A DNA stretch of 42,412 nt, taken from the NCBI GenBank assembly GCA_964538165.1, contig CAZIEL010000001.1:1-42412 (forward strand). The letters run 5' to 3'. The translations under genes were made by a program, and so were the position numbers. The DNA is from an uncultured archaeon. GTDB taxonomy: Archaea; Iainarchaeota; Iainarchaeia; Iainarchaeales; JAAZKV01. Shown piece by piece: positions 2,590 through 29,257 of this stretch (positions are counted from its first letter, which is position 1; every line of letters starts with the position of its first letter). The notes under the pieces were generated by a model that made no database searches, was not told where the DNA came from, and saw only the letters and a program-made list of their open reading frames with translations.

Positions 2590-3749
2590 TACTAATTTAC
2601 TGTGCACTCGGAATAATTGCAGGAACAATTTGCGGACTACTTCCAGGACTCCACTCAAATAATGTTGCAATAATATTTCTTGCAACCCCTCTATTTGGAA
2701 CGGAAGCAACAGTGTTTATGTTATGTCTTTGCACAACACAAGCATTTGTTGAGTTTGTTCCATCCACTTATTTAGGAGCACCAAATCCAAATACTTTTGA
2801 AAGCATTTTACCTGCACAAAGAATGATGCTAGAAGGAAACGCACTTGAAGCAATAACATACGCAGTACTCGGCGGCATAGTCGCAGTACTACTTGGCACA
2901 ATTCTAACTCCTTTTTTCTTTTTATTCATTGAACAAAATTCTGAACAAATAAAACTAATTACGCCCATAATTCTCTTTTTTGCATTAATCCTCTTTATTG
3001 CCCGAGAAAAAGGAACCAGATTAAAAATACTCGCATTTTTCATAATTGCCGCATCAACCACACAAAGTTTGTTATTCAAAGACCAAGTATTCCCCTTAAT
3101 TTGCGGATATTTTGGAACCGCGGGACTAATTTACTCGTTGAAAGAAAAAAAAGCAATGATAAAACAAAAAGAGAATTTCCAAATTGATCCAAAAAAAATC
3201 ATTGATTCACTAAAAGGTCTCATTGGCGGAGCAATTGTGGCTGTAATGCCTGGAATTGGAAGCAACACTGCCGCAGGAATAATAAATGTATTTAGTAAAA
3301 CAAAGGATGAAAAAGGTTATTTGACAATGCTTGGATCAATTAGCCTATCAAACTTCTTTTTTTCATTCTCCACACTAATAGCACTACAAAAAGCAAGAAA
3401 CGGGACAATGCTTGCTTTAAAAGACAAAATATTTTACACCCAAGAAACTCTGTTCTTAGGAACAACAATAATGTTAATTTCTGCAGGAATAGGAGCAATT
3501 ATCACAATATTTATGGCAAAAAAATTCAACAAAATAATCGAAAAAATTAATATAACCAAAATTACAATAGCAAGCATTGCATTTATGATATTTTTAGTTT
3601 GTATTTTTAATGGAGTTATTGGATTTACAACCTTAATTTTTTCAACAAGCCTTGGATTATTTGTACTAAGCAATAAATTAAACAGAAGTACTTGCATGAG
3701 TTCACTTATCGTACCAACTATCCTTTTCTATGTATTCATACTAACATAA
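2586..3749 (+). CDS. DUF112 / TctA-like polytopic membrane protein
   Basis: About 10-12 TM helices with duplicated glycine-rich motifs (GIIAGTICGLLPGLHSN and GGAIVAVMPGIGSNTAAG) typical of the TctA/DUF112 family. Confidence 0.55.
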   Translation: MILIYCALGIIAGTICGLLPGLHSNNVAIIFLATPLFGTEATVFMLCLCTTQAFVEFVPSTYLGAPNPNTFESILPAQRMMLEGNALEAITYAVLGGIVAVLLGTILTPFFFLFIEQNSEQIKLITPIILFFALILFIAREKGTRLKILAFFIIAASTTQSLLFKDQVFPLICGYFGTAGLIYSLKEKKAMIKQKENFQIDPKKIIDSLKGLIGGAIVAVMPGIGSNTAAGIINVFSKTKDEKGYLTMLGSISLSNFFFSFSTLIALQKARNGTMLALKDKIFYTQETLFLGTTIMLISAGIGAIITIFMAKKFNKIIEKINITKITIASIAFMIFLVCIFNGVIGFTTLIFSTSLGLFVLSNKLNRSTCMSSLIVPTILFYVFILT

Positions 3750-5791: not shown

Positions 5792-7540
5792 ATGAATGCA
5801 AAAAAAAGAATAGCAGTAATCGATTACGATGTTTGCAATTATGACAACTGCGGAAACTACCTTTGCGAAAAAGTATGCCCCTTAAATAGAACTGGAAAAA
5901 AATGCATTGTGCACGAAGTTTTGCAAAAACCCATAATTGCTGAAGAAGTTTGCATTGGTTGCGAAATATGCCAAAACCGGTGCCCTTTCAAAGCAATAAG
6001 CATAGTTAACTTATCATTTAACTTAGATGAGCCAATTCATTCATTTGGAAAAAACTCTTTTAGATTACACGGATTACCAACCCCAAAAGAAAAAGCAGTA
6101 TTAGGATTTGTTGGAAGAAATGGGATAGGAAAAACAACAATTGTAAAAATCCTCTCAGGAAACATCATCCCAAACTTTGGAGAAAAAACAAGCGACAAAC
6201 AAAAAGTGATTGATTATTACAAAGGAAAAGAAGCCCAAGAATATTTCAAAAAATTATATGTTGATGGAATAGAAGTTGCAGTAAAACCACAAAATATTGA
6301 ATTAATCAAACCCACAGGAATTGTAAAAGACATACTAAAAAAAGTTGATGAACGCGGAATGCTTCAAGACGTTGCCAAACAAATGAACATAGAAGGAATA
6401 TTACACCGAGATGCATCAAAGTTATCTGGGGGAGAATTCCAAAAATTGGCAATTGCAGCAACGGGATTAAAAAAAGCGGATCTATATTTCTTTGATGAAC
6501 CAAGCTCATTTTTAGATATAAAAGAAAGATTACGGGCAGCAAAGTTTATCAGAAAACTCGCAGAAACTGCAGCAGTAATAGTTGTTGAACACGACTTAGT
6601 ACTGCTTGATTACTTAAGTGATTATGTAAACCTATTGTATGGAAAACCAAGAGTATATGGATTTGTTTCCCAAGTAAAAACAACAAGAGAAGGGATAAAC
6701 ACATACCTTGAAGGATACTCAAAAGATGAAAATTATAGGTTTAGAGATTATGCAATTGATTTCTTTGGTGGACAAAGAATGGACAAAAAAGAAAGAAAAG
6801 AAAAAATAACTGAATGGCCAAAAATAGAAAAAAAGCTGGGTTCATTCAAATTGTGTGTTGAAGAAAACAGCGTAAGAAAAAATGAAATAATTGGAGTTGT
6901 TGGACCAAACGGAATAGGAAAAACAACATTTATGAAAATACTTGCTGGAGAAATAAAACCAGACAACATAGAAATAATGCAACAAGCCAAAATTTCTTAC
7001 AAACCACAATACATTTCTTATACTGGAGAAAAAACAGTAATAGAACTATTTGAAGGTGCAATTAGTGATATAAAACAAACAATAATTAAACCACTTGAAC
7101 TTGAAGAACTTCTAGAAAAAAAAGCAAAAAACCTTTCGGGAGGAGAACTACAAAGAGTATCAATAGCACTATGTTTAAGCAAAAAAGCTGATTTATACTT
7201 ACTTGATGAACCAAGCGCATATTTAGATGTAGAACAAAGACTGGCAGTTGCAAAAGCAATAAGATCCCACATGGATGTAACAGATTGTTCAGCATTAGTA
7301 ATAGATCACGATTTGACATTTATTGATTTTTTGAGTGACAAAATAATGGTTTTTAGCGGAGAACCCGCAATAGAAGGAAAAGCAGAAGGACCCTTTTCAG
7401 TAGAAGAAGGAATGAACAAATTACTAAAATACTTAGATATTACAGTAAGAAGAGATAAAGACACTAAAAGACCAAGAATCAACAAACACGATTCGGTTCT
7501 GGATAGAGAACAAAAACAAGCGGGAAACTATTATTATTAA
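5792..7540 (+). CDS. abce1: ABCE1 / RNase L inhibitor homologue (ribosome recycling ATPase)
   Basis: N-terminal double 4Fe-4S ferredoxin-like Cys clusters (CNYDNCGNYLCEKVCP, CIGCEICQNRCP) are followed by two ABC cassettes (GRNGIGKTT/LSGGE/FFDEPS and GPNGIGKTT/LSGGE/LLDEPS). 582 aa. Confidence 0.95.
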   Translation: MNAKKRIAVIDYDVCNYDNCGNYLCEKVCPLNRTGKKCIVHEVLQKPIIAEEVCIGCEICQNRCPFKAISIVNLSFNLDEPIHSFGKNSFRLHGLPTPKEKAVLGFVGRNGIGKTTIVKILSGNIIPNFGEKTSDKQKVIDYYKGKEAQEYFKKLYVDGIEVAVKPQNIELIKPTGIVKDILKKVDERGMLQDVAKQMNIEGILHRDASKLSGGEFQKLAIAATGLKKADLYFFDEPSSFLDIKERLRAAKFIRKLAETAAVIVVEHDLVLLDYLSDYVNLLYGKPRVYGFVSQVKTTREGINTYLEGYSKDENYRFRDYAIDFFGGQRMDKKERKEKITEWPKIEKKLGSFKLCVEENSVRKNEIIGVVGPNGIGKTTFMKILAGEIKPDNIEIMQQAKISYKPQYISYTGEKTVIELFEGAISDIKQTIIKPLELEELLEKKAKNLSGGELQRVSIALCLSKKADLYLLDEPSAYLDVEQRLAVAKAIRSHMDVTDCSALVIDHDLTFIDFLSDKIMVFSGEPAIEGKAEGPFSVEEGMNKLLKYLDITVRRDKDTKRPRINKHDSVLDREQKQAGNYYY

Positions 7541-13296: not shown

Positions 13297-13344
13297 CTCT
13301 CTTTGTTGGACACAATTTGTATTTGGTTATTTAGTAATAGACAG

Positions 13345-13863
13345 ATGATTAAAATGAAAAGATTGTTTGTTGCAATTGAAATTCCAACGAAAATTAAAGA
13401 CAAAATATTTGAAGAAATAATTAAACCCTTAAACAATGTAAAAAAGACTGATCAAAATAATTTACATATAACCTTGTGTTTTATTGGGGACACACTTGAA
13501 CAAAAAGAAAAACAAATAATCCAAGCGCTAGAAAAAGTTGAATTTAAAGAATTTAATATCCTTATAGGACGACCAGGACAATTTAATGAAAAAGTGTTTT
13601 GGGTTAGCGCAGAATCTATTGAATTATATGATTTGGCTCAAAAAATTAGTGCGGCAATTTGTAAGGATAACGAATTTAACGGACACATAACTGTTGCTAG
13701 ATCAAACGAGTTAACAATTTTTGAAAAAGAATTTGCACTTATTAAAAACAAAAAAGTTAATTCAACAATAAAAGTAAAAAAATTTGTGCTCTTTGAAAGT
13801 AAACCCTCTACAAAAGGAAGCATTTATGTTAAAGTAAAAGAATTTAGCAAAAAAAAGAAATAA
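13345..13863 (+). CDS. 2H phosphoesterase (LigT/ThpR-like RNA 2',3'-cyclic phosphodiesterase / 2'-5' RNA ligase)
   Basis: Two H-x-T/S motifs (HITLCF and HITVAR) at the expected spacing. The start is uncertain: ATG at 13345 or 13354, and the ORF opens at TTG 13303. Confidence 0.75.
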   Translation: MIKMKRLFVAIEIPTKIKDKIFEEIIKPLNNVKKTDQNNLHITLCFIGDTLEQKEKQIIQALEKVEFKEFNILIGRPGQFNEKVFWVSAESIELYDLAQKISAAICKDNEFNGHITVARSNELTIFEKEFALIKNKKVNSTIKVKKFVLFESKPSTKGSIYVKVKEFSKKKK

Positions 13864-15467: not shown

Positions 15468-16829
15468 ATGAAAGCATTATATAAAAAGATTTTGGAAAAA
15501 ATCACTCCCTCAAAACAAGAACTGCTCGCAGAAAAAAAGCAAGTTGAAGAAATAAAGAAAAAAGTAAAAAAAATTGAAGGAAAACATTCACACATTGAAT
15601 GGTGCGGCAGTAGCGCAAGAGGAACTCATCTAAAAGGAGACAGAGACCTTGATTTGTTTTTAATGTTTAACAAAGAACTCTCTTCAAAAGAACTTGAAGA
15701 AGAAGGACTAAGAATAGGAAAAGAAGTATTTGATGGACAAAAATGGGAAATTGCATATTCACAACACCCTTACATAAGAGGAGAAATAAAAGGGTTTGAA
15801 ATTGAAATTGTTCCCAGTTATATTGTAAAAAGCGGGGAGGAAAAACAAAGTGCTGTGGATAGAACTCCTTTTCACAACAAATATTTATTAAAAAACATGA
15901 AAGTTTCACAAAGAGCTCAAGCCAGATTACTAAAACAATTCCTAAAAGGAATTAATGCATATGGAGCAGATCTAAAAAACCAAGCTCTCCCAGGATATGG
16001 AGTAGAATTACTAATATTACATTATTCAACTTTTGATAAAACAATAAAAGCAATGTCAAAATGGAAAGAAAAAGAAGTAATTACTTTTTCCAAACAAGAA
16101 AGAGACCCAGCAAACGAATTTTTTAACCCATTAATAATAATTGATCCGGTGGATAAAAATAGAAATGTTGCATCAGCATTATCACAAGAACAATACAATA
16201 AAATGAAAAACGCCGCAATAAAATTTATTAAAGAGCCGTCAGAAAAATTCTTTTTTGGGAGCGAAATAGATGTTTGGCCCAAAGAAAAAGTAATTTTAGA
16301 ATTAAAGAAAAAAGAATTTATTGCAATACAAGCAAATTTCCCAAAAGACATCCTATCAGATCTTGTTTGGGGACAATTAAGAAGATATTTACGAAAAGCA
16401 GCAAACCAACTTGAGGAAAAGGATTTTGTTGTAAAAAAATCAGATCTTTGGAGCGATGAAAACAAAATATTTTTTATGTATGAATTATCAACATTAGATT
16501 TACCAAAAATAAAAAAAATAATTGGGCCAAATGCACTTGATGCCGAGAATGTTAAAAAGTTTTTAGAGAAAAAGAGAAAAGTCGTTAAGGGCCCAAGAGT
16601 AGAAAATAACAAACTTGTAATAGAAGTCGAGAGAGTCGAGACTAACGCAAAAAGAGTGCTTGAAAGTTTCATCAAAACTTGCCAAATCAATGAAAAGGAC
16701 GGAATCAAAGAATGCTTAAAAGAAGCGGAAGTTTTAAGCGAAACAGAAATACTAAAACACTACAAAGGCGATTTTGCCAAACACTTGACAAAATACTTGG
16801 AAGGAAAAGAATTTTTTGAGTTAAAATAA
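15468..16829 (+). CDS. cca: archaeal class I CCA-adding enzyme (tRNA nucleotidyltransferase)
   Basis: GSSARGTHLKGDRDLDLF nucleotidyltransferase motif, plus RTPFHNKYL and LLKQFLKG, typical of archaeal CCA enzymes. 453 aa. Confidence 0.9.
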   Translation: MKALYKKILEKITPSKQELLAEKKQVEEIKKKVKKIEGKHSHIEWCGSSARGTHLKGDRDLDLFLMFNKELSSKELEEEGLRIGKEVFDGQKWEIAYSQHPYIRGEIKGFEIEIVPSYIVKSGEEKQSAVDRTPFHNKYLLKNMKVSQRAQARLLKQFLKGINAYGADLKNQALPGYGVELLILHYSTFDKTIKAMSKWKEKEVITFSKQERDPANEFFNPLIIIDPVDKNRNVASALSQEQYNKMKNAAIKFIKEPSEKFFFGSEIDVWPKEKVILELKKKEFIAIQANFPKDILSDLVWGQLRRYLRKAANQLEEKDFVVKKSDLWSDENKIFFMYELSTLDLPKIKKIIGPNALDAENVKKFLEKKRKVVKGPRVENNKLVIEVERVETNAKRVLESFIKTCQINEKDGIKECLKEAEVLSETEILKHYKGDFAKHLTKYLEGKEFFELK

Positions 16830-18739: not shown

Positions 18740-18774
18740 ATTAAACTTATTTTGAACACACTTTGGTGAAAAAA

Positions 18775-19035
18775 ATGGGAAAAGCAATGGTAATATTTAA
18801 AGTATTCTGTGATCCAGATAAATTGGATGCGGTAGAAGCACATTTGAGAACTATTACTGCTGGAGACTTTAAGGACCTTAAAAGAGAACCAATTGGATTT
18901 GGAATAGAGGTTATTAGAGTAGGATATGTTATCCCTGACAAAGTGGATGGCGCAATGACAAAATTAGAAGAAGCCGTAAAAGCAACACCAAACATTAACG
19001 AAGCAGAAGTAGAAATGGCAACCCTAATTGGATAA
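18775..19035 (+). CDS. ef1b: translation elongation factor aEF-1 beta
   Basis: MGKAMVIFKV...REPIGFGIEVIRVGYVIPDKVDG...AEVEMATLI matches the archaeal EF-1beta pattern (~86 aa). ATG at 18775 follows GGTGA. Confidence 0.85.
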   Translation: MGKAMVIFKVFCDPDKLDAVEAHLRTITAGDFKDLKREPIGFGIEVIRVGYVIPDKVDGAMTKLEEAVKATPNINEAEVEMATLIG

Positions 19036-19103
19036 GCCCCACAACTACTACTTTTTTTAACAAACCAAATAGTAATTTATTACTTATCCTATAGAAACTA
19101 CTT

Positions 19104-21152
19104 ATGATAACTTCCCTAACTTTACAAAACTGGAGAACGCACTCTCAAACAACACTAGAGTTTGGAAAAGGAACAAACGTAATTGTTGGAGTAATGGGCT
19201 CAGGAAAAAGCTCAATAGTTAACGCAATTAGTTATACTCTTTTTGGAAGCTTCCCCTCGCTAAAAAACAGAAGTGTTACGCTTGAAGAAATAATAATGAA
19301 TAAACCAAACCAACAAACAAGAACAGAAACCGGACTTACTTTTGAACAAGATGGAAAAAAATACAAAATTGAAAGAATAATAAAAAAAGATGGAACAAAC
19401 GAAGCAAAACTATATGAAGATGCTAAATTAATTGCGGGCCCAAAACAAAAAGATGTTAATGAAAAAGTTGAAAACCTACTCGGGCTTAATTATGAATTGT
19501 TCTCAAGAGCAGTTTATTCTGAACAAAATGAAATGGACTTCTTTTTGAAACTATCTCCAAGCGAAAGAAAGAAAAAATTTGATGAATTGCTTGAACTTGA
19601 AAAATATGAAGAAGCAAGAAAAAACTCTGTGACACTCCAAAATGACATTCTTAAAGAAAATAAACAAAGAAAAGAATTTATTGAACAACAAAAACAAACA
19701 ATCAAAAGCCACGAAGAAGAAAAACTACTAAAACAAATAGAAGAAGAAAAAAGAGCAATAGAAGAACTCCATAAGGAAATTGAACAAGTAAAAAAAGAAA
19801 GTTTGTTTATCGAAAAAGAATACACTTCTCTTTTTGAAAAAGAAAAGCAAAACAAAATGCTTGAAGACCTTTTTATTAAAATTAATTCAAAATTAGAAAC
19901 CCTAAAAGAAGATATTGCAAAAAGTGAAAAGATTTCCCTAAATGAAGTGGAAGAAGAAAGCAAAAAACTAAAACAAGAACTTATTGTTCTTAGAGAAAAA
20001 CAAATCACAATTGAAAAAACCCACAAAGAGCTGGATATGCTAGTTAAAAAAAACGGAGAAGAAAGAAAAGTTAATGAATATGAGAAAAACAAATTGATTA
20101 TTGAAGAAAAAGGATTAGCAGGATTAAAAGGAAAATGTCCGACTTGCAAACAAGAAATGGATGAAAACCATAAAGGACACTTAATTAAAGAAATTAAAGA
20201 AAAACTAACAATTTGCGAAACGAACATAAAAGAATTTGAAGAACAAAAAAAAGAACTTGATGAAAAAACCAGTAAAGCTGAAAGAGAAAGGGACACATTA
20301 AGAAAAGATATTGATGAAAAAAACAGGATTTTGTTTAAACTAGAGGCCAGCACAAAACAAGCAATGGAAACTGAGATTAAAAAGAAACAATTTATCGAGC
20401 TTAGTGAAGAAATACCCAAAGTAAAAAAACAACTTAACGAACTTGGATTTGATAAAAAGAAACTTGAGACGATTCGTGAAGAATTTTACAAAAAAAAGAG
20501 AGTCTTAGAAGTGGCCGAAATCAAAGCCAAATCAAAAGAGGAAATAAAAAAGAGTTTTGAAGATATCCTGCAAAAAACCTCCAAAATAAAGAAAAGCATA
20601 GAAGAACAAGAAAAACAAGTACTACGCGCAGAAGAAGCGGCAAAAAAAATGAGCGTATTTGGAAACTGCTTAATTGCTACCCAAGTGGAACTAAGAGAAT
20701 CAATGCTTGAAACAATAAATCAAGCAATGACCAATATTTGGGGAGCAATTTACCCTTATAATGATTTTACTGACGCACGACTTTGTGTTGTTGAAGAAGG
20801 GTATGATTTACAAGTACAAACCAGATCAAACGGGTGGGTAAGAGTGGAAGGAATACTTTCTGGAGGAGAAAGAAGTGCTGCGGCATTATGCATTAGAATT
20901 GCCTTTGCACTTGTTCTTACCAAAAAACTATCTATGATAATACTTGATGAACCAACACACAACCTTGACTCAAATGCAGTTACAAAATTAAGTGAAATGT
21001 TAAGAGAAGAAATGCCAAAACTTGTAGAACAAATATTTGTAATAACTCATGATAAACAACTTGAAAATGCAGCAAGCAGTAATCTTTACTTGTTAACAAG
21101 AAACAAAGATAATGATGAATCAACGAAAGTTGACCAAATTCAAACTTACTAA
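19104..21152 (+). CDS. rad50: Rad50 DNA double-strand break repair ATPase (compact, 682 aa)
   Basis: N-terminal Walker A GVMGSGKSS, a long heptad/charged coiled coil with a central CxxC zinc hook (KCPTCKQ, nt 20136-20147), and C-terminal signature LSGGE plus Walker B IILDEPT. Confidence 0.9.
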   Translation: MITSLTLQNWRTHSQTTLEFGKGTNVIVGVMGSGKSSIVNAISYTLFGSFPSLKNRSVTLEEIIMNKPNQQTRTETGLTFEQDGKKYKIERIIKKDGTNEAKLYEDAKLIAGPKQKDVNEKVENLLGLNYELFSRAVYSEQNEMDFFLKLSPSERKKKFDELLELEKYEEARKNSVTLQNDILKENKQRKEFIEQQKQTIKSHEEEKLLKQIEEEKRAIEELHKEIEQVKKESLFIEKEYTSLFEKEKQNKMLEDLFIKINSKLETLKEDIAKSEKISLNEVEEESKKLKQELIVLREKQITIEKTHKELDMLVKKNGEERKVNEYEKNKLIIEEKGLAGLKGKCPTCKQEMDENHKGHLIKEIKEKLTICETNIKEFEEQKKELDEKTSKAERERDTLRKDIDEKNRILFKLEASTKQAMETEIKKKQFIELSEEIPKVKKQLNELGFDKKKLETIREEFYKKKRVLEVAEIKAKSKEEIKKSFEDILQKTSKIKKSIEEQEKQVLRAEEAAKKMSVFGNCLIATQVELRESMLETINQAMTNIWGAIYPYNDFTDARLCVVEEGYDLQVQTRSNGWVRVEGILSGGERSAAALCIRIAFALVLTKKLSMIILDEPTHNLDSNAVTKLSEMLREEMPKLVEQIFVITHDKQLENAASSNLYLLTRNKDNDESTKVDQIQTY

Positions 21153-21862
21153 AAACCCAAAATGTTTCTAACTCTTTTTAATTCATCTTTAATTTCACTA
21201 ACTTTTGAGAAAGGCATGTCTTCCTCAATTACAATTGGAACATCTAACTCCAAAATTGGCTCAATGGAACTTAAAAATGAGCGACCAACTTTTTTGAACG
21301 GAAAGTGATCCCTATGATATCGATTGTTACTAAAATGAACTTGCTTTATTCTACTCTTCCACTTGCCAACAATATATTCGGTTTCTCTTGTTGACCAATC
21401 ATAAGCATGACTAACATCCAAACACAAGCCTAAATCTGAATTATCACGTAATGCGAGCTCAAATCCAAGTCGGGGCCTATTTTTTCCTTTCTTGGGATTA
21501 AGATTCTCTGTTAAAAAATTCAAAGAAGAAATTTTTATAAAATCTTTTGGAAAAATTTGAACTGGATGAGTTATAATGTGTGAAGACCTAATTTTTTTAG
21601 AATAATCCTTTAAGATATTTAACCCATCAATCATTTCTTGCTCAGACATATATTTTAAACTAAAAAGAAAAGGAGAATGAATGCCATTAAATTTAAAACT
21701 TTTCAAAATATCAAATTGAGAGTCATTTAATTTTCTTTCATTAAAATCTTTTCCAAGAGTTAACTCAACCCCATCAACATCCAAAGAACTAATTATCTGA
21801 AAAATATCTTGCTTTTTGATAAGTTGACGCAAATTTCCTGTCGCAAAACAAAGCGCTCGCAT
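21149..21862 (-). CDS. xylose isomerase-like TIM-barrel protein (sugar phosphate isomerase/epimerase / AP endonuclease 2 superfamily)
   Basis: The spacing of conserved His/Glu/Asp segments (GIHSPF, HIITHP, LTENL, LCLDVSHAY, VHFSNN..DH) is typical of this fold. Its stop overlaps the rad50 stop by 4 nt on the opposite strand. Confidence 0.55.
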   Translation of the reverse strand: MRALCFATGNLRQLIKKQDIFQIISSLDVDGVELTLGKDFNERKLNDSQFDILKSFKFNGIHSPFLFSLKYMSEQEMIDGLNILKDYSKKIRSSHIITHPVQIFPKDFIKISSLNFLTENLNPKKGKNRPRLGFELALRDNSDLGLCLDVSHAYDWSTRETEYIVGKWKSRIKQVHFSNNRYHRDHFPFKKVGRSFLSSIEPILELDVPIVIEEDMPFSKVSEIKDELKRVRNILGF

Positions 21863-22124: not shown

Positions 22125-22334
22125 TTATTCAAATAATTCTATTCTCTTTAACTTACCATTAGGATATTTTCTCAGAATACTTAAAGGCAAAACTTTTTGA
22201 GCCATCTCTTTTTCTGCTACTTCAAGCATATCGAGTTCGCTAGTTCTTTTTACTAAAGGGGGTGCCCCTAAAGATAATTGTAGAGCTCTAGCTGAGAGAA
22301 CCCTAGTAACCTCAAATCTTGTAAACCTTACCAT
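22125..22334 (-). CDS. rpoK: DNA-directed RNA polymerase subunit K (Rpo6/RpoK)
   Basis: MVRFTRFEVTRVLSARALQLSLGAPPLV is the conserved Rpb6/RpoK core. The ORF extends to 22367, but the Met at 22334 (preceded by GGTGG) matches family N-termini. Confidence 0.8.
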   Translation of the reverse strand: MVRFTRFEVTRVLSARALQLSLGAPPLVKRTSELDMLEVAEKEMAQKVLPLSILRKYPNGKLKRIELFE

Positions 22335-22416
22335 TAAGCCACCAGTAACATAATTCATCAAAAACAACCTTTAAAAACTTAGCTCCAAAGGGTCAAAAAT
22401 TGCTAAAAAGAGAATT

Positions 22417-24024
22417 TTAGGCAAAACCCTTAACTAGGTGGCTACTAAACCCAGCTATTTGGGGCTGAGGAAGGTTTTGAGCCATAGCAAAAGATTTAGC
22501 CAATTTTAGAGAAGAAGTGCCTTTTATAAAAGCACTTTGTTTATTTGCATGCAAAACCCTATAACCTTCATTTTCTGAGAATTCTTTAAACTTAGAAAGA
22601 GTGGCTTCTTGAATGGAAATAATGGATCGAGCCAATTGAGTAGAAAAAAAGGATGAACTTTGGCTAGTTAATTGATTAGGAAGTTCACTTAACACTTGCG
22701 AAATCACAGAATACAAAGCAACATCATAATAATAACCAAATTCTTTAATTGAAAACAAATTTGATTCATAAAAATCAATTCTTTTTCTTAAATTAAATAA
22801 ACTAGAATTTGACTCTCTAACTTCTCTTGAAAAAAAACTTTCTTTGTTTAAGCAAAACCAATTTAGTTTGTGATTTGCATCATCTGAATTCCTGCTTGAA
22901 ACCAAAATTGCTTTATTCTCAGAAATTAACCTTTTAGCATCCATTAGCGGAACTAAAACAAAATCGTTCCTAAAAAAAGGGCCAACAGGAAAAGAATTTA
23001 AAAAAAAATCTCTTTTCTTTTGAACTCTGAGTTCTTTCATTTCATTTTCTTCGTGGTAATCTCTCGCAAAACTTTCTGAAGAAGACTCAAAAAAAGAATT
23101 GTCTTCATTAAACTTAATTTTTATTAATGAAGAAGGAAGTAAATTCTTTGAATCCAAAGTAACTGGTTCACAACAAGAACAATTTTTTGTTTCAGGCCCA
23201 ATATTGAAAAAATTGTTTGAGAAAAGATCGGCCCAAATTCTTGAAAAATCAATTTTTGAAAGAACTTCATTCTTACTTCCAATTGGCTCAAACCCAACAC
23301 TTGAAAATATCTTCTCGGATTTATCAAAAGTGATTGGTTCTCCGTGTTTAAAGAAACATTTTTCCAAATACAATTCTACTTTTTCTTCTCTTGATTTGGG
23401 AATTTGTTCCATTGAAACAGAAAGCAAATGACTCCATGCCGCAAGTTCAACTAAATATAATGAATCTTCTTTATTTACCCTTAATGCTTCTTGAAATGAA
23501 ATTTCTTTTGTGAGAAAAAAGCCAAGATCTGCACCCTCCCCAATTTTTTGCACTAAATCTTGACTGTTTTCATCACAAAGAGGATTAGTATAATAAAGCA
23601 CGCCGTCTATTTTTTTAAAAGAATCAAAATAAGACCAATTTTTTTCAACTAAAAAAGATTTTTCTGGCCCAATCACAACAAATTTTTTGTTAATATGCAA
23701 AGCTAAGGCATTACTAATCTTTTTTAAATCCGAAAAATTTAGGGTCCTTAATTTTAGGAAATTATTGTCCTCCTCAACACTAAAACCCTTAAAACCCAAA
23801 GATAAAATTAAAGTTGAAAGCTTTTCTTTTTCAATTGAGCTTGAAATCAAAATAAAAGGAAAAAACTTGTGTCGTTGAACCATTCTTTCTTTTGAATTAG
23901 AAAATTCTACTAAAACCTCATGTTTGGATTCATTGTAAGAAACTTTTGTTAAGTAAAGCAAATCATTTTCTTTTGATTGAGCTTGCGTAACGCTATCTAG
24001 ATTACTCTCTATGTGTTGGGACAT
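22417..24024 (-). CDS. family B DNA polymerase-like protein, truncated and predicted catalytically inactive
   Basis: By-eye alignment to archaeal PolB finds four matching segments. The N-terminal domain pattern is LYLTKVSYNESKHEVLVEF...HKFFPFILI. A motif A-like segment is KIDFSRIWADLFSNNFFNIGPET, versus [20 protein letters not shown]. A motif B remnant is EFGYYY. The pre-motif C helix plus motif C is ARSIISIQEATLSKFKEFSENEGYRVLHANKQSAFIKG, versus [41 protein letters not shown], so DTD becomes NKQ. The protein ends about 40 aa later, so there is no thumb and no KKRY. No Exo I-III motifs are seen. Confidence 0.5.
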   Translation of the reverse strand: MSQHIESNLDSVTQAQSKENDLLYLTKVSYNESKHEVLVEFSNSKERMVQRHKFFPFILISSSIEKEKLSTLILSLGFKGFSVEEDNNFLKLRTLNFSDLKKISNALALHINKKFVVIGPEKSFLVEKNWSYFDSFKKIDGVLYYTNPLCDENSQDLVQKIGEGADLGFFLTKEISFQEALRVNKEDSLYLVELAAWSHLLSVSMEQIPKSREEKVELYLEKCFFKHGEPITFDKSEKIFSSVGFEPIGSKNEVLSKIDFSRIWADLFSNNFFNIGPETKNCSCCEPVTLDSKNLLPSSLIKIKFNEDNSFFESSSESFARDYHEENEMKELRVQKKRDFFLNSFPVGPFFRNDFVLVPLMDAKRLISENKAILVSSRNSDDANHKLNWFCLNKESFFSREVRESNSSLFNLRKRIDFYESNLFSIKEFGYYYDVALYSVISQVLSELPNQLTSQSSSFFSTQLARSIISIQEATLSKFKEFSENEGYRVLHANKQSAFIKGTSSLKLAKSFAMAQNLPQPQIAGFSSHLVKGFA

Positions 24025-24064
24025 GACAATAGAGCAATTTTAGAGACTTAAAAAGACCAAACCA

Positions 24065-24081
24065 ACCAATTTGCCGGTGAT
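24065..24081 (-). promoter_or_regulatory. shared promoter-proximal element (ACCAA-T-TTGCCGGTGAT) upstream of the PolB-like gene
   Basis: 41-57 nt upstream of the start codon at 24024, just distal to a TATA-like box (coding strand CTTTTTAAGT). The 11-mer TTGCCGGTGAT is identical to the one upstream of herA. Confidence 0.45.
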
Positions 24082-24091
24082 GAATAAAAAC

Positions 24092-25630
24092 TCACAAGAA
24101 GGCATTTATTTCGTCTTCCTTTTTCTTTTCATCAGATTGGAAGGCTTTTGCAGCATCTTCTAAAGTGGATTCATGACGACTTGGTTGAGATTTACGCAAT
24201 CTCACTTTAAAGAAAGTTGGGGCACTAACTGCTTCACCAACAATTAATGCTTCTCCAACCCTAAGTGAAGAAATAATTCCAATGCTTGATTTATCTAAAC
24301 CTTCAGAGGATTGAGAAATGTGATCAAGATCGTAAGGGTTAGTAATTCTTAGAATAATATTTGTGTTACAATTTGCAAGAGTTGTTGTATCAAGTCTTTT
24401 TGGTCGTTGAGAAATTACTACAAGTGAGGCTCCAAACTTTCTACCTTCTCTTGCAATAGTTCGTAAGTATGAACGCGCAACTGCATGATCGGCTGCAACC
24501 CCCTCAGGAATAAAATTATGCGCTTCTTCAACAAAAAGAGCAAACGGAGGAATCTTCCTAGAGTGCCCTCTCCTCTCATGAAATAATTTATTTGATAAAT
24601 AAGCAACAAGCACCTGCTTTTTCTTTTCAGAAACAACATTATTCAAATCAATCACAAGCAAATTGCCCGGTTTTACTAAATCAATTACACTAGGCTCATC
24701 AATTTTTGAAAAAAGATTTAATTCTTCAAGTTCTGCAAGCACACCAAATAATGAACTCTGAGTCTTTTCATTTTCAATTGTTTTAATCTCTGCTCTAATT
24801 GCACTCAAGTCAAACGGGCCTGCACCAGAACGCATTTCATCATTTAATCTTGAAAGAATTACTGCAAGCGCCCTTTTTTGGGTAGGGGAGAGTTCAACAA
24901 TACTTGAAAGCATGTGAACATTCACCTTTGAACAAGCAATTTTAATTTTTGACCCATCAATAATTTTTGTAACTGAAGAAAAATCCTTAAACTTTGAAGA
25001 ATCACTTTGTTTTACTGGCTCACCAAAACAAGTATATTCTCCATGCGTATCAATAACTACTACTCCAATTTGACCCTGTTCTTTTTTTCTGGAGAGAAGC
25101 TCTTCTAAAAGAACACTAACAAAATAAGATTTTCCTGCTCCACTAGTTGCAACAATTGCTAAGTGTTTTTGAAGCATTTTAGAAAGATTTACTTTAAGAT
25201 CAACATCATGAAACTGAAGTTTGCCAAGCTCAAGCCCATCAATTTGTAACCCCAAAAATTTCTTTATCTTTTCATTATCAGCAGTATAAATTTTTGTTCC
25301 AGGAGAGGGAGGAAAAGTGGGTCTTTGAATCAAGTTATCTTTAAACACACCAAGTGGTTTGGCATTTGCAATTAAAAATTCCCATTCAGCAGCAGGAAAA
25401 TTCTTTTCAAGTTCTTCTCCCATCACTTTAACTGAATCGGGTCGCTCAAAATAACGGTTTGTTTTTATTACATCCTCAACTAAAAGCATCATTGTTCCTT
25501 CAGAATATTCTAATTCCACAAACATTCCTTTGTGAGCTTTGCCAGCATTAATTACAAAAGAAACTGTTGAAGGAGAAGGACCTTCCATTGTTGAAACAAC
25601 TGTTCCTAATTGATCACGCATAAACATCAA
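24092..25630 (-). CDS. herA: HerA DNA helicase/translocase (FtsK-HerA superfamily ATPase)
   Basis: N-terminal HAS-barrel-like region, Walker A ATSGAGKSY and Walker B LFVEEAHNFIP, with REGRKFG and ISQRP segments typical of HerA/DUF87. 512 aa. Confidence 0.9.
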   Translation of the reverse strand: MMFMRDQLGTVVSTMEGPSPSTVSFVINAGKAHKGMFVELEYSEGTMMLLVEDVIKTNRYFERPDSVKVMGEELEKNFPAAEWEFLIANAKPLGVFKDNLIQRPTFPPSPGTKIYTADNEKIKKFLGLQIDGLELGKLQFHDVDLKVNLSKMLQKHLAIVATSGAGKSYFVSVLLEELLSRKKEQGQIGVVVIDTHGEYTCFGEPVKQSDSSKFKDFSSVTKIIDGSKIKIACSKVNVHMLSSIVELSPTQKRALAVILSRLNDEMRSGAGPFDLSAIRAEIKTIENEKTQSSLFGVLAELEELNLFSKIDEPSVIDLVKPGNLLVIDLNNVVSEKKKQVLVAYLSNKLFHERRGHSRKIPPFALFVEEAHNFIPEGVAADHAVARSYLRTIAREGRKFGASLVVISQRPKRLDTTTLANCNTNIILRITNPYDLDHISQSSEGLDKSSIGIISSLRVGEALIVGEAVSAPTFFKVRLRKSQPSRHESTLEDAAKAFQSDEKKKEDEINAFL

Positions 25631-25662: not shown

Positions 25663-25680
25663 GGTAACTTGCCGGTGATC
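25663..25680 (-). promoter_or_regulatory. shared promoter-proximal element (GGTAA-C-TTGCCGGTGAT) upstream of herA
   Basis: 33-50 nt upstream of the herA start at 25630, just distal to a TATA box (coding strand GGTATTTTTATATGA). Confidence 0.45.
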
Positions 25681-25882
25681 ACTTCAACCCAAATTTAATT
25701 TGTCTTTTTTTAACATTCCTTTTTCTAGTATTAACCATTCTTAATTGTCTTAAAGACTTAGCATCTTTAAGCAGTTTTAGGGCAAGTTGTTTTCTTTTAA
25801 TTGACATCCCTGAACGCATGAGTATTGCGTCAGCATCCAAAAGGGTTTGCCGAACCCGATTCTCTAAATTATTTTCTACCAT
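25679..25882 (-). CDS. hypothetical small basic protein
   Basis: The 67-aa ORF overlaps the HAD gene stop by 14 nt and ends 48 nt before herA. Its position in the operon is the only support. Confidence 0.3.
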   Translation of the reverse strand: MVENNLENRVRQTLLDADAILMRSGMSIKRKQLALKLLKDAKSLRQLRMVNTRKRNVKKRQIKFGLK

Positions 25883-26540
25883 TTAACACACCAACCACTT
25901 TTGGCAACTCAAAGAGGGATTTAATTTCAAATTCGGGTTTTATACTTGCATAATCAATTACTTTTCCATTTCTATTAATTAAACAATTGTGCATTCCAAC
26001 ATTTTTTGAGCCGGTTATATCACTACGTAAAGAATCCCCCACCATTATTGCTTCGTTTGGTTTAACTTTAAGTTTATTCAAAATTGTATTAAACGCCACC
26101 GGATCAGGTTTGATTGTTTTTATCTCAAAGCTATAAACAATTTTGTCAAAATAAGTCGGCAAAGAAAGTTTGTTTTCAAGTTCTTTTGATTTAAGACTCT
26201 CAGTATTTGAAAGCAAACCAAGTTTAAATCCATCCGACCTAAGCTTTTTTAGAAATTCCCTAACATCAGGAAAAAAGTTTATTTTATCAAAACGATTAGT
26301 ATAAATTTCATTAATCTCTTCTTGCAACAATACGTTGGGTTCCTCACTAAAAGCATTAAAAAAATCTCCTTTTAACTCTTCAAAAGATTTATATTGTTTT
26401 AATTGAGTGGCAAGTTCATATCGTTCAATAAATTCTGGGAGAGACGCGTGATCTTTTTTTGCTAACTCTGTTAACCTTCCAAAATCAACTGTTGCAGGAA
26501 TTAAGGTATTCCACAAATCAAAAACAATTGCTTTAATCAT
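25869..26540 (-). CDS. HAD-superfamily (subfamily IA-like) hydrolase
   Basis: Motif I VFDLWNTL (nucleophile Asp present, but the D+2 position is Trp), motif II LLSNT and motif IV VGDSLRSDITG. 223 aa. Confidence 0.8.
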   Translation of the reverse strand: MIKAIVFDLWNTLIPATVDFGRLTELAKKDHASLPEFIERYELATQLKQYKSFEELKGDFFNAFSEEPNVLLQEEINEIYTNRFDKINFFPDVREFLKKLRSDGFKLGLLSNTESLKSKELENKLSLPTYFDKIVYSFEIKTIKPDPVAFNTILNKLKVKPNEAIMVGDSLRSDITGSKNVGMHNCLINRNGKVIDYASIKPEFEIKSLFELPKVVGVLNGRK

Positions 26541-26670
26541 CTTTTGCCCCTCTTTAATTTTCTTGCAATTCTTGCCTTTTTCTTTTCAGTTCGACCTCTT
26601 AACACAGAACCCAAATTGTTAAGCAAATATTTTCTATTGGCAGCAATAACTGCTTCAGGTTCTTTAGACT

Positions 26671-27296
26671 GCATAAAATGAATCCTTGAAAGTTCTTGCA
26701 TATCTTTTGCAAAGTATGCTCTTCTTCTTTCTGCTTCAAGTTTAGAGTTAGATAAAAATACTTTACGCGGAAGAGCACTCATAAATCTTCTATTAACTAT
26801 TGTTCTTTCTCCCTTTGAAGAAAGAATTTGCCCAAGTGCATTAGCATGCATTGAACCAACAACAACATAAACTGGTTTTCCTTTTTTTGCATTAATTGTA
26901 TTACGAATAATTGAAGCCATATTCTCTTCACGCTTAATGCTTGCGCTTGTAACCCAAAGGAAACGATCAAAATCAGATTTTATTCTATTTACTCCTTTCA
27001 TGAAAGAATATTCTGAAGAAAAAGTTTCAAGGTTAATTACCTTAAATGCTTTTGATCTTGCAACATCAGCAAGTTCAATTAACGAAGAAAAATTTGAGAA
27101 CAAAACATTCAAGTACTTGTCACCATACATTCGTTTTGCCCTTGCAACATTCTCAGCCAAATACTTTGGAGGAGAAACTTTAAGCAAGCTATTATTTGCA
27201 TGAGCCTCCCCAACCGCAAGAGCAAAATCAAAAAGTTCTTTACTCCCTTCAACACAAACCGTAGATCCATTCGGGAGAGAATGCAAGTACGAAAGT
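26671..27296. repeat. tandem direct repeat, copy 1 (626 bp)
   Basis: Identical base-for-base, by eye, to 27297..27922. The antisense ORFs 26937..27203 and 27563..27829 give identical 88-aa translations. Confidence 0.9.
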
Positions 27297-27922
27297 GCAT
27301 AAAATGAATCCTTGAAAGTTCTTGCATATCTTTTGCAAAGTATGCTCTTCTTCTTTCTGCTTCAAGTTTAGAGTTAGATAAAAATACTTTACGCGGAAGA
27401 GCACTCATAAATCTTCTATTAACTATTGTTCTTTCTCCCTTTGAAGAAAGAATTTGCCCAAGTGCATTAGCATGCATTGAACCAACAACAACATAAACTG
27501 GTTTTCCTTTTTTTGCATTAATTGTATTACGAATAATTGAAGCCATATTCTCTTCACGCTTAATGCTTGCGCTTGTAACCCAAAGGAAACGATCAAAATC
27601 AGATTTTATTCTATTTACTCCTTTCATGAAAGAATATTCTGAAGAAAAAGTTTCAAGGTTAATTACCTTAAATGCTTTTGATCTTGCAACATCAGCAAGT
27701 TCAATTAACGAAGAAAAATTTGAGAACAAAACATTCAAGTACTTGTCACCATACATTCGTTTTGCCCTTGCAACATTCTCAGCCAAATACTTTGGAGGAG
27801 AAACTTTAAGCAAGCTATTATTTGCATGAGCCTCCCCAACCGCAAGAGCAAAATCAAAAAGTTCTTTACTCCCTTCAACACAAACCGTAGATCCATTCGG
27901 GAGAGAATGCAAGTACGAAAGT
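27297..27922. repeat. tandem direct repeat, copy 2 (626 bp)
   Basis: Head-to-tail with copy 1, offset exactly 626 nt. At most 1 nt (T) of junction microhomology. Confidence 0.9.
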
Positions 27923-27998
27923 AAGTCATGATGAAGAGCTTTCTCTATAGCATGACTCCAAGGAAGAATTTCAATACTTGTTCTAATTGTCATTAACT

Positions 27999-29096
27999 TC
28001 ACCCAAAAGGACGATTACTTCTTCGCATTCTAACTTTTGACCCCAATCGATCAACCAATCTATCATAAACAATACTAATATCCTGTTCATTTAAACCTGC
28101 CCTAAGGTCGGCTTCAATTAAAACGCTTGGAAAAGAATATTCTTTATGCAAAGAACTCAAAGAATACACAATACTTGCAATATTTTGGACACACTCAAGA
28201 AAGTGTCCAGCATTTTGAGAATTATTACAAAGAAATTCCACTCTTAAGGGTTTATCAAATTCAGTAGATTTAATATAAAAAACAAAAATGTTTTCAGCCC
28301 ACTTTTTATCATAATCTTTTAGAATAGCATGACTAACAATTTTATTTGTATACGGAAAAGCAAATGTTCGTTCACCCGCCCGCAAATAATAATCCAACAA
28401 AGAAGCATCAAAAGAATTTTTTAATAAACTTGCATCAACCTTTAATGCAGAATTTGGGAGAATTTCTTCTTGAAGAATTTGTTTAAATCTTGCCCCCCTA
28501 GAATCTTCAACACAAGCAACCAAAGAACAAGAATATTCTTGAGCAACACCATACAACTTCTCAAAAAGATCAATAATTGAATAATACTCATCATTAAGTT
28601 CAGACTCAGTTCTGGGTTTATCTTGATATTGCGGAACAATACTCCCATCAATAAACATAAACTTTGGTTTATACTTTTGTATCATTTCAATTGAACACGA
28701 AACCTCTGCCTTTAACCTAACAAGAGAAAGACTTTGAGTTTCTTCATCAGCTTCAAGACCCGAACCAAGCAAAACTGGTTCCGGCAAAGAAAATGCAGCA
28801 GGATAATAATCAGTTTTAACTAATTTACCCCCTTCATAAGTAAATAAAACCCCCGCGGTTTTTATTATTGCAAGATCAATAAAAGAAAGTTTTTTGTGAA
28901 TAAAACCAGAATCCACTCCAGCAACAGCCCCAAAACAATCTTTTTTATTGACTCCAACTACAATCGTCTCGAGTTTGTTTGGAGCACTCACACTTTTCAA
29001 CCCCTGCAAAAGAAGAGAAAGTCGCTCATTATAATTGTGTCTTTGGTTAATAGCAGAAACTGCAGTTTCAAAAAAATCTTTAAACACTAATCTCAC
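27999..29096 (-). CDS. nurA: NurA 5'-3' nuclease
   Basis: 365 aa with a GTG start. It has NurA-type catalytic segments (AGVDSGF, MFIDGSIVPQ, ACVEDSRG) and lies in the same neighbourhood as herA and rad50. Confidence 0.85.
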   Translation of the reverse strand: MRLVFKDFFETAVSAINQRHNYNERLSLLLQGLKSVSAPNKLETIVVGVNKKDCFGAVAGVDSGFIHKKLSFIDLAIIKTAGVLFTYEGGKLVKTDYYPAAFSLPEPVLLGSGLEADEETQSLSLVRLKAEVSCSIEMIQKYKPKFMFIDGSIVPQYQDKPRTESELNDEYYSIIDLFEKLYGVAQEYSCSLVACVEDSRGARFKQILQEEILPNSALKVDASLLKNSFDASLLDYYLRAGERTFAFPYTNKIVSHAILKDYDKKWAENIFVFYIKSTEFDKPLRVEFLCNNSQNAGHFLECVQNIASIVYSLSSLHKEYSFPSVLIEADLRAGLNEQDISIVYDRLVDRLGSKVRMRRSNRPFG

Positions 29097-29135: not shown

Positions 29136-29146
29136 GGCAATTTGCC
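29136..29146 (-). promoter_or_regulatory. shared promoter-proximal element, perfect palindrome GGCAA-T-TTGCC upstream of nurA
   Basis: 40-50 nt upstream of the nurA GTG at 29096, just distal to a TATA box (coding strand TCTTTAAATATTAAAAA). Confidence 0.45.
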
Positions 29147-29257
29147 GACAAAAAAGTTGACTTAAGAGCAAGGTTTATAAAGAAAATACGCTTTCTACTT
29201 GTTGGAAACTAGGCTTAATGAGCTAGGTTTAATTTCTTGCGAAAAAGGTGTTTTTTT

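Follow-up and report, generated by a model that had tools for sequence, protein, structure and literature searches.

The DNA analysed here is a stretch of 42,412 nucleotides from an uncultured archaeon of the class Iainarchaeia (contig CAZIEL010000001.1; the whole stretch is referred to as the window, and its G+C content is about 32%), and its subject is gene X, an open reading frame (ORF) located between herA and rpoK. The protein is almost certainly a homologue of the family-B DNA polymerases (PolBs) by fold, and to judge from its sequence it is catalytically dead as a polymerase, since motif B, motif C, the exonuclease core and the thumb are all gone. No description of the family to which it belongs was found in literature searches; with thumb and exonuclease core both absent, it is more reduced than any other PolB derivative from cells of which we have found a description. 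Our reading as a whole, which we put forward tentatively, is that gene X encodes a pseudo-polymerase, a PolB homologue without catalysis that has been turned into a binding module and that aids end resection.

22417..24024, minus strand: gene X, an apparently inactivated, thumbless family-B DNA polymerase homologue of 535 amino acids (aa) (ORF, AlphaFold2 and Foldseek; stop codon included).

The gene starts with ATG, and the N-terminal 'MSQH' is kept in orthologues. PolB homology had been claimed in a first-pass annotation of this DNA from a series of motif matches, and it is borne out by structure comparison as well as by profiles. The AlphaFold2 model of the protein, built on an alignment of 37 family sequences (A1), has a mean predicted local distance difference test (pLDDT) score of 85.4 and a predicted template modelling (pTM) score of 0.84. 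It gives 234 Foldseek matches in the PDB at E <= 0.001, and the best 50 listed are all PolBs. The best match is 5mdn_A, the PolB of Pyrobaculum calidifontis (E = 5e-12; TM-score normalised to the query, TMq, 0.51); the global match to PolBs spans about 690 columns, and Pol epsilon ranks only 29th among the whole-protein matches. When the profile made from A1 is compared with PDB sequences, only PolBs stand at the top (5mdn at E = 0.042, E. coli Pol II at E = 0.07); the PolBs matched in this way, 5mdn, 1q8i and 3k57 (E = 0.04-0.07), are aligned in both motif A and motif C. The NCBIfam DNA Pol II model NF004421 matches aa 451-520 with E = 3.6e-4, at a score of 18.9 bits that is below the curated cut-off of 570, and the NCBIfam Pol II models match 10 and 9 of the 37 family members with a best E of 3.3e-5. 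The PolB models of Pfam (PF00136 and PF03104, i.e. DNA_pol_B_exo1) match neither the window protein nor the 37 members nor 10 distant members, so that the earlier remark that the protein has no obvious family is right for Pfam, though not for NCBIfam with its weak Pol II signal. Residues were mapped on the sequence of Pfu polymerase (100% identical to PDB 3a2f_A), to which, as to an alignment of Thermococcales PolBs, hhalign aligns the family in collinear local blocks. The blocks are individually weak (pairwise E of 0.009-0.18 and a low 'probability'), and the Thermococcales alignment is of low diversity, as the Pfu-seeded homologue search gave close Thermococcales relatives only and hence no diverse PolB profile; they are nevertheless consistent with one another and with the HMMER and Foldseek results.

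From these alignments and models, the protein is divided into the following segments; all column counts given here and below refer to an alignment of 190 full-length members of the family.

23635..23967, minus strand: PolB-type N-terminal domain, aa 20-130 (Foldseek global match; holds 10 of the 31 columns that are at least 90% conserved).
23500..23634, minus strand: vestige of the 3'-5' exonuclease, aa 131-175, one beta-hairpin and short helices (AlphaFold2 secondary structure).
23275..23499, minus strand: helix corresponding to Exo III, with the linker that leads to the palm, aa 176-250 (hhalign).
23182..23274, minus strand: palm strand pair with a degenerate motif A, aa 251-281, 'KIDFSRIW...FFNIGPET' (HMMER and hhalign).
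22852..23181, minus strand: four-Cys site and inserted domain, aa 282-391 (conservation and a model of the isolated domain).
22666..22851, minus strand: fingers, aa 392-453, two long helices, H397-421 and H429-453 (AlphaFold2 secondary structure and hhalign).
22444..22665, minus strand: C-terminal palm segment with an apparently dead motif C, aa 454-527 (NCBIfam, HMMER and hhalign).

In the N-terminal domain the motif 'PER.FL.EKNW' is conserved, and it resembles 'AKRYLIDKGL' of Pfu by eye, not through a tool-made alignment. The exonuclease has lost about 125 aa of its core, and the remaining vestige is the least conserved and gappiest part of the protein; read by eye, its 'FDSF' has D134 in 162 of the 190 members and places F136 (188/190) at the position of the Exo I Glu. 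The following block, aa 176-288, is aligned by hhalign with Pfu 304-432, comprising the Exo III helix, the linker and motif A (E = 0.0088; D259 on D405 and C285 on C429), and the column aligned with the Exo III residue D315 is Glu in 47 members, Lys in 29, Ser in 27, Asn in 18 and Asp in only 10. The missing core and this variable column agree with the statement in the first-pass annotation that no Exo I, II or III motif is visible. The motif A match that it claimed, with the first Asp kept and SLYPS eroded, is reproduced by both HMMER and hhalign: 'KIDFSRIW...NIGPET' is aligned to 'LDFRALYP..NVSPDT', and the family profile 'idFskvw...Nigfet' to 'LDFSSMYP..NLSPDT'. D259 is thus retained (Asp in 151 of 190, Asn in 21), and SLYPS, including the steric-gate Tyr, is replaced by 'SRIWA'.

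The second block aligns aa 390-499 with Pfu 442-546, C391 falling on C443. Motif B residues K488, N492, Y495 and G496 of Pfu correspond to S442, S446, P449 and N450, and these columns are unconstrained in the family except for P449 (143/190). The loss of the motif B Lys and Asn had been recognized correctly in the first reading, although 'EFGYYY' (aa 428-433), then taken for the tail of motif B, lies about 17 residues N-terminal of the aligned position; the remainder of that alignment stands. The motif C residues D541, T542 and D543 are replaced by N494, K495 and Q496 (codons at 22537-22545), exactly the DTD to NKQ change first proposed; in the window protein this segment reads 'GYRVLHANKQS', and in the profile alignment 'gyrvlhankk' is placed onto 'GIEVIYGDTDS'. 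The catalytic Asp columns are unconstrained in the family: the first is Asn in 59 members, Gly in 26 and Asp in 24, the rest being divided among other residues, and the second is occupied by Asn, Ser, Lys, Arg, Glu and others, with Asp outside the eight commonest residues.

The protein ends about 40 aa past motif C and has no thumb, as first described. A length of about 500-535 aa with an end soon after motif C recalls the split PolB of Nanoarchaeum equitans, the large fragment of which is similar to the gene X product in both respects, and the first-pass annotation had raised the possibility that the protein is likewise the N-terminal piece of a split active PolB, completed by a thumb gene or by intein trans-splicing. 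This explanation is effectively refuted and deserves almost no credence. The catalytic residues of motifs B and C are missing throughout the family, and the exonuclease core has gone as well, so that an added thumb would not restore activity; the region from motif A to motif C lies within the ORF, which has no intein-like extension, and neither a thumb nor any other PolB fragment was found in the window or in 15 related loci by tblastn and profile searches with full-length Pfu polymerase, its thumb and its exonuclease domain.

At the C-terminus of the protein (window 22417-22500, aa 510-535) a motif '[LI]PxPx[IV]' is conserved (P519 in 144 and P521 in 156 of the 190 members), followed by a basic tail that often has an aromatic residue near its end. 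The sequence 'LPQPQIAGF' was considered as a PCNA-interacting peptide (PIP) box and rejected, Gln being present in 69 of the 190 members only and the second aromatic residue being absent.

A word-indexed search gave 86 homologues of gene X (clustered at 90% identity) and an exhaustive phmmer search 160 cluster representatives (50% clustering), nearly all of 480-550 aa, the median length being 501 aa; full-length members number at least 190. All come from Iainarchaeia or from unclassified archaeal metagenome-assembled genomes (entered as Candidatus Iainarchaeum, ainarchaeum, Diapherotrites or 'archaeon'), and all are nameless or labelled hypothetical or uncharacterised. Within Iainarchaeia the protein is single, full-length and lineage-wide, and its members diverge to 20-30% identity. 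Against this divergence 31 columns remain at least 90% conserved, 16 of them in the Cys site and the inserted domain and the 10 already mentioned in the N-terminal domain, and none in the fingers or in the palm segment with motif C. The most conserved residues besides the Cys described below are G348 (190/190), P349 (189), F124, L125 and F136 (188 each), D362 (185) and H324 (178). This distribution indicates that selection keeps the N-terminal domain and the insertion with its putative metal clamp, not the polymerase active site. The constraint thus falls on parts other than the polymerase remnants, and the Cys site and the insertion had gone unmentioned in the first-pass annotation.

That annotation had called the gene a relic. 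A functionless, decaying PolB remnant would account for the degradation of all the polymerase and exonuclease catalytic motifs and for the loss of the C-terminal third of PolB, and yet this idea can be regarded as effectively refuted, with a probability close to nil: at least 190 members have the ORF intact and at a stable length, and some of its positions are under strong constraint, it has a conserved promoter of its own, and the predicted fold is confident (pLDDT 85). Among distant members, P0194, P0199, P0206 and P0211 (about 425-430 aa) stop after the finger helices and do not have the motif C segment. In some sublineages, it seems, the erosion of the PolB remnant continues; truncation at contig ends is the alternative for these short members.

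The most constrained feature is a pattern CxCC(x105)C, made of C282, C284, C285 and C391, each present in 189 of 190 members. The four Cys residues mark both ends of an extra domain of 105 aa that is placed between motif A and the fingers, and H324 also belongs to the site. The sole exception, P0200, lacks the whole set of four, as would be expected if they served one metal site; this distant member of 428 aa retains 'PVGPFF...IPLIDALEL' and has a weak match to Pfam PSF2_N at aa 268-306. The insertion replaces the 13-residue loop between C429 and C443 of Pfu, with which C285 and C391 are aligned, and these two Pfu residues presumably form the disulfide pair of Thermococcales PolBs (as in the Tgo and KOD structures). 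We infer that the four Cys residues bind one metal centre, Zn or Fe-S, which would staple the insertion to the palm.

The insertion has the topology b-b-a-a-b-b-a-b and an invariant motif 'P.GPF...PL.DA..L', and modelled in isolation (aa 280-394) it reaches a pLDDT of 91. In a Foldseek search of the PDB this model has no match at E <= 0.001. Homology to the P-domain of Pol epsilon was considered and rejected: there is no Pol epsilon among the 50 matches listed, and a profile of aa 250-400 found neither Pol epsilon nor anything else relevant among PDB sequences, so that the resemblance to the P-domain is kept as a positional analogy only. The top weak matches are GINS subunits, led by the C-terminal domain of Gins51 (5ghr_B; E = 0.067; TM-score normalised to the target, TMt, 0.70) and followed by further GINS chains from Tko, Sso, yeast and human at E = 0.2-3. 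The invariant motif resembles the GINS B-domain signature by eye, and Pfam gives weak matches to Gins51_C (E = 0.032) and PSF2_N (E = 0.099) in one member each. In BFVD, on the other hand, unrelated and uncharacterised small phage proteins match the insertion equally well, so the GINS likeness is a lead and not a finding; 276 kb of related sequence, searched with a hidden Markov model of the insertion, yielded no paralogous GINS-like ORF.

The genes around gene X that bear on its role are the following.

24092..25630, minus strand: herA, HerA/DUF87 helicase (Pfam PF01935, 8e-31; NCBIfam HerA, 6e-49).
27999..29096, minus strand: nurA nuclease, the first gene of the nurA-...-herA-gene X array (Pfam PF09376, 6e-5, above the gathering score).
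19104..21152, plus strand: rad50, convergent with gene X (Pfam AAA_23, SMC_N and Rad50 zinc hook).

The placement of gene X between herA and rpoK is confirmed by the coordinates: herA lies upstream at a distance of 67 bp, and rpoK (22125-22367) lies 49 bp downstream and is followed by rps17e, a TIM-barrel gene and the convergent rad50. In the window nurA is separated from herA by a HAD hydrolase gene and a duplicated unknown gene. Fifteen related loci, in which the identity of the gene X product is 27-59%, were compared with the window. The order nurA-(HAD)-herA-gene X, or herA-gene X on shorter contigs, recurs in all loci whose sequence reaches the upstream side, L007 and L013 having short upstream flanks without herA. 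Downstream of gene X, 14 of the 15 loci have rpoK, rps17e and the convergent rad50; L013 is rearranged, and there gene X stands directly before a co-directional rad50, with rpoK and rps17e displaced.

No mre11 (metallophosphatase) gene flanks rad50 in the window or in L001-L003, at the level of these loci, and the upstream neighbour of rad50 is the aEF-1beta gene (window 18763-21152; likewise L001-L003). A 214-aa Metallophos gene of L002 (19158-19802) is too short for a typical Mre11, and the window ORF beside TYW3 (13303-13863) encodes an RNA 2',3'-cyclic phosphodiesterase, not Mre11. In the herA-mre11-rad50-nurA operons of thermophilic archaea mre11 follows herA, as gene X does here. The protein might therefore be a new non-polymerase enzyme, a nuclease or a redox-sensing DNA-processing enzyme that uses the Cys4/His metal centre and D362 and perhaps replaces the Mre11 missing beside rad50; C282, C284, C285, C391, H324 and D362 are all invariant or nearly so. 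We consider this very improbable, because no nuclease motif or fold is recognisable, the listed whole-protein Foldseek matches are all polymerases, the DEDD exonuclease residues are gone, and a cluster of Cys where an inserted domain joins its host usually has a structural role; mre11 is, moreover, absent at the locus level only.

A link to end resection is supported by the conservation of nurA-herA-gene X, by the nearby rad50 and by a promoter motif that is common to gene X and nurA. Within the 42 kb of the window, YCGGCAARTT is matched perfectly at exactly three places, each on the minus strand, which lie about 45-55 nt upstream of gene X, herA and nurA, so that the shared upstream element of the three genes described in the first-pass annotation is confirmed.

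24047..24080, minus strand: gene X promoter, TCACCGGCAAATT followed after about 13 nt by the TATA-like TTTTTAAG and lying about 45 nt before the ATG (exact match at 24068-24077).
25666..25675, minus strand: herA upstream copy, TCACCGGCAAGTT, followed by the TATA-like TTTTTATAT (pattern match).
29139..29148, minus strand: nurA upstream copy, TGTCGGCAAATTGCC, followed by CTTTAAATAT (pattern match).

Across the lineage the element CACCGGCA is common to the promoters of gene X and nurA, about 13-19 nt upstream of the TATA box. It is present upstream of gene X in nearly all of the 15 related loci and in the nurA promoters of L001, L006, L010 and L011, with relaxed variants before nurA in further loci. 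The pattern C[AG]CCGG[CA]A-N12-24-TATA occurs 15 times in 276 kb, as against 0.37 times in shuffled sequence, and 11 of these occurrences are upstream of gene X, two of nurA and one of herA. In the window the element is absent from the regions upstream of rad50/aEF-1beta and of rpoK. This promoter evidence for the resection link is stronger than adjacency.

On these grounds, the product of gene X is possibly an accessory factor of end resection. The protein would not polymerise; we infer that it is a subunit without catalysis that binds DNA and proteins and is expressed together with NurA-HerA. A strand or an end of DNA might be held in the groove formed by its N-terminal domain, palm and fingers, the inserted domain, which is GINS-B-like with its helix and small beta-sheet, might dock HerA, NurA, Rad50 or a nuclease of the RecJ/GAN type, and the protein would thereby assist or regulate the resection of double-strand-break ends. 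An accessory role in end resection had been suggested in the first-pass annotation: the link to resection is upheld by the conserved gene order and the promoter motif, and the structural or DNA-binding role itself is a deduction in that reading as in ours.

Several points weigh against this interpretation. Any physical or functional tie of the protein to HerA, NurA or Rad50 is presumed from sequence, as is metal binding from the conservation of its ligands, and the GINS-like reading of the insertion draws on non-significant scores (Foldseek E >= 0.067, Pfam 0.03-0.1). Synteny is region-wide, extending to the genes for the CCA enzyme, T2SSE and aEF-1beta, so that adjacency by itself is weak evidence, and gene X also adjoins rpoK and rps17e. 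The protein evolves much faster than its proposed partners, with an identity of 27-59% as compared with 38-83% for HerA, NurA and Rad50. Furthermore, ACCGGCACCAAAGCACTTATATATAAAG at window 15396 on the plus strand, with a CCGGCA-plus-TATA arrangement, precedes the gene of the CCA-adding enzyme (15468-16829), which means that the element is not exclusive to repair genes; it may define a small regulon that extends beyond them.

The non-specific adjacency in a wholly syntenic region would also suit a scaffold of the replisome, in which the protein bridges replication proteins like the inactive C-terminal module of Pol epsilon, the GINS-B-like insertion mimics Gins51C to bind GAN/RecJ, PolD DP1 or MCM, and the proximity of herA is incidental. 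Inactivated PolB modules are known as replisome scaffolds, as in the C-terminal half of Pol epsilon (PMC7544198; PMC2669801), and Gins51C is a docking domain for GAN and DP1 (PMC9023282); the top fold matches of the isolated insertion are GINS subunits including 5ghr_B, and two members have the weak Gins51_C and PSF2_N matches given above. However, none of these GINS signals reaches significance, and small folds of this kind are common; it is with nurA and herA that gene X has the promoter element in common, no replication gene was seen with it, and gene X stays beside rad50 even in the rearranged L013. A replisome scaffold is therefore rather unlikely, and we retain the accessory role in end resection as the preferred reading. 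A bolder version of it, in which the protein is a core subunit of a remodelled archaeal break-resection machine with mre11 no longer beside rad50, the dead PolB holding the DNA end, the metal-clamped insertion recruiting HerA-NurA, Rad50 or a RecJ/GAN nuclease, and the Cys4 site with its insertion being an archaeal counterpart or an independent re-invention of the CysX Fe-S/P-domain arrangement of Pol epsilon, is improbable in its entirety.

Some further observations concern the neighbouring genes. The herA orthologues of L004 (1415-1921 and 3728-4765) and L012 (1349-1924 and 3644-4726) are split by about 1.7-1.8 kb, an interruption that could be an intein or an inserted element, and that of L014 consists of two adjacent tblastn pieces (2065-2664 and 2654-3577), which suggests a frameshift. 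The window, L001 and L003 each have a small ORF of about 58-68 aa between the HAD gene and herA (window 25679-25882, minus strand; L001 7494-7700; L003 8238-8414); the one in the window has no family match, and the herA-type promoter element falls just within its 3' end. A 100% identical tandem direct repeat with a period of 626 bp (window 26670-27595) lies in the unknown gene that separates nurA from the HAD gene and involves the ORFs 26537-27286 and 27109-28002. Part of the ORF is doubled by it, and two identical antisense ORFs of 88 aa result. Either the assembly is at fault here or the duplication is very recent; the L001 orthologue (5950-6819, 289 aa) is single-copy. The TIM-barrel protein encoded between rps17e and rad50 (237 aa; window 21149-21862, minus strand) is present in some loci only, with copies elsewhere in L004 (8157-8858) and L009 (4405-5115), and shows weak AP_endonuc_2/xylose-isomerase-like and CbiR-like matches.

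Archaeal PolBs of the PolB3/PolB1 type (5mdn, 1tgo, 3a2f, 1s5j) and the gene X product are alike in the fold of the N-terminal domain, palm and fingers, and their motif A and motif C segments are collinear, with C285 and C391 aligned to C429 and C443 of Pfu. Unlike them, the gene X product has no thumb and no exonuclease core, the Lys, Asn, Tyr and Gly of motif B and the DTD of motif C are replaced, a 105-aa domain stands in place of the 13-residue Pfu loop, and no Pfam PolB model is matched.

Inactivated PolBs are known in archaea as the PolB2 group (Rogozin 2008; Makarova 2014; Kazlauskas 2020). In PolB2 both the exonuclease and the polymerase centres are disrupted, and a role in repair or regulation has been proposed; one Asp of motif C is kept, the protein is otherwise a complete PolB-type protein, and it is encoded with inactivated RadA paralogues and arCOG07300 (PMC4104785; PMC7544198). 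PolB2 and the gene X product are thus both archaeal PolB paralogues with disrupted catalytic centres, and they are set apart by their neighbours and by motif C: in the latter no Asp of motif C is conserved, the thumb is missing and there is an additional domain with a putative metal clamp, and the gene is surrounded by herA, rpoK, rps17e, nurA and rad50, not by RadA paralogues or arCOG07300.

The four-Cys site invites comparison with the CysX site of Pol epsilon, which holds a [4Fe-4S] cluster, and with its P-domain, since in both proteins three Cys residues precede and one follows a domain inserted between motif A and the fingers. C665, C668 and C677 of Pol2 lie 25-37 residues beyond D640, which we take to be its motif A Asp, and the offsets in the gene X product are similar, C282, C284 and C285 being 23-26 residues past D259 and C391 following the insertion. 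In Pol2 these three residues are located before the insertion and C763 after it (PMC6582351), an arrangement described as absent from other PolBs (Kazlauskas et al., PMC7544198). The insertion in the gene X product gives no fold match to the P-domain among the 50 listed, and the core of Pol epsilon is active and has a thumb. Its location in the CysX/P-domain slot, with the outer Cys residues aligned to C429 and C443 of Pfu, suggests that this loop is a recurrent site of metal or disulfide stapling and of domain gain in PolBs. The fold shared by the GINS B-domain and the PriS C-terminal domain (PMC2861644; Gins51C 5ghr) is, like the insertion, a small antiparallel beta-sheet on a helix; the insertion differs in sitting in a polymerase palm and in having two extra helices and the Cys4 clamp, and the similarity scores are non-significant.

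Precedents for dead PolB folds exapted as scaffolds are provided by the C-terminal half of Pol epsilon (PMC2669801) and by viral inactivated PolBs, namely poxvirus F12 (PMC4304020) and the Polinton-like helicase-PolB fusions (PMC5499653). These belong to other lineages and contexts, and none has been reported with the domain make-up of the gene X product or with a nurA-herA link. Inactivated polymerases exapted as scaffolds are rare and informative, and that this one is found throughout a DPANN class whose genomes are very small speaks for an important role. The family offers a testable candidate partner of NurA-HerA-Rad50, the regulation and accessory factors of which are poorly known in archaea, in a locus where rad50 is conspicuously without an adjoining mre11, and it fills an annotation gap, as at least 190 full-length relatives stand nameless or 'hypothetical' outside any Pfam family. 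Collectively, since PolB2, the C-terminal half of Pol epsilon and F12 are already known, an inactivated PolB is not in itself new; the gene X family differs from them in that it has neither a thumb nor an exonuclease core, that its presumably Cys4-clamped insertion occupies the CysX-equivalent site, and that it stands in a nurA/herA/rad50 context with a common promoter motif.

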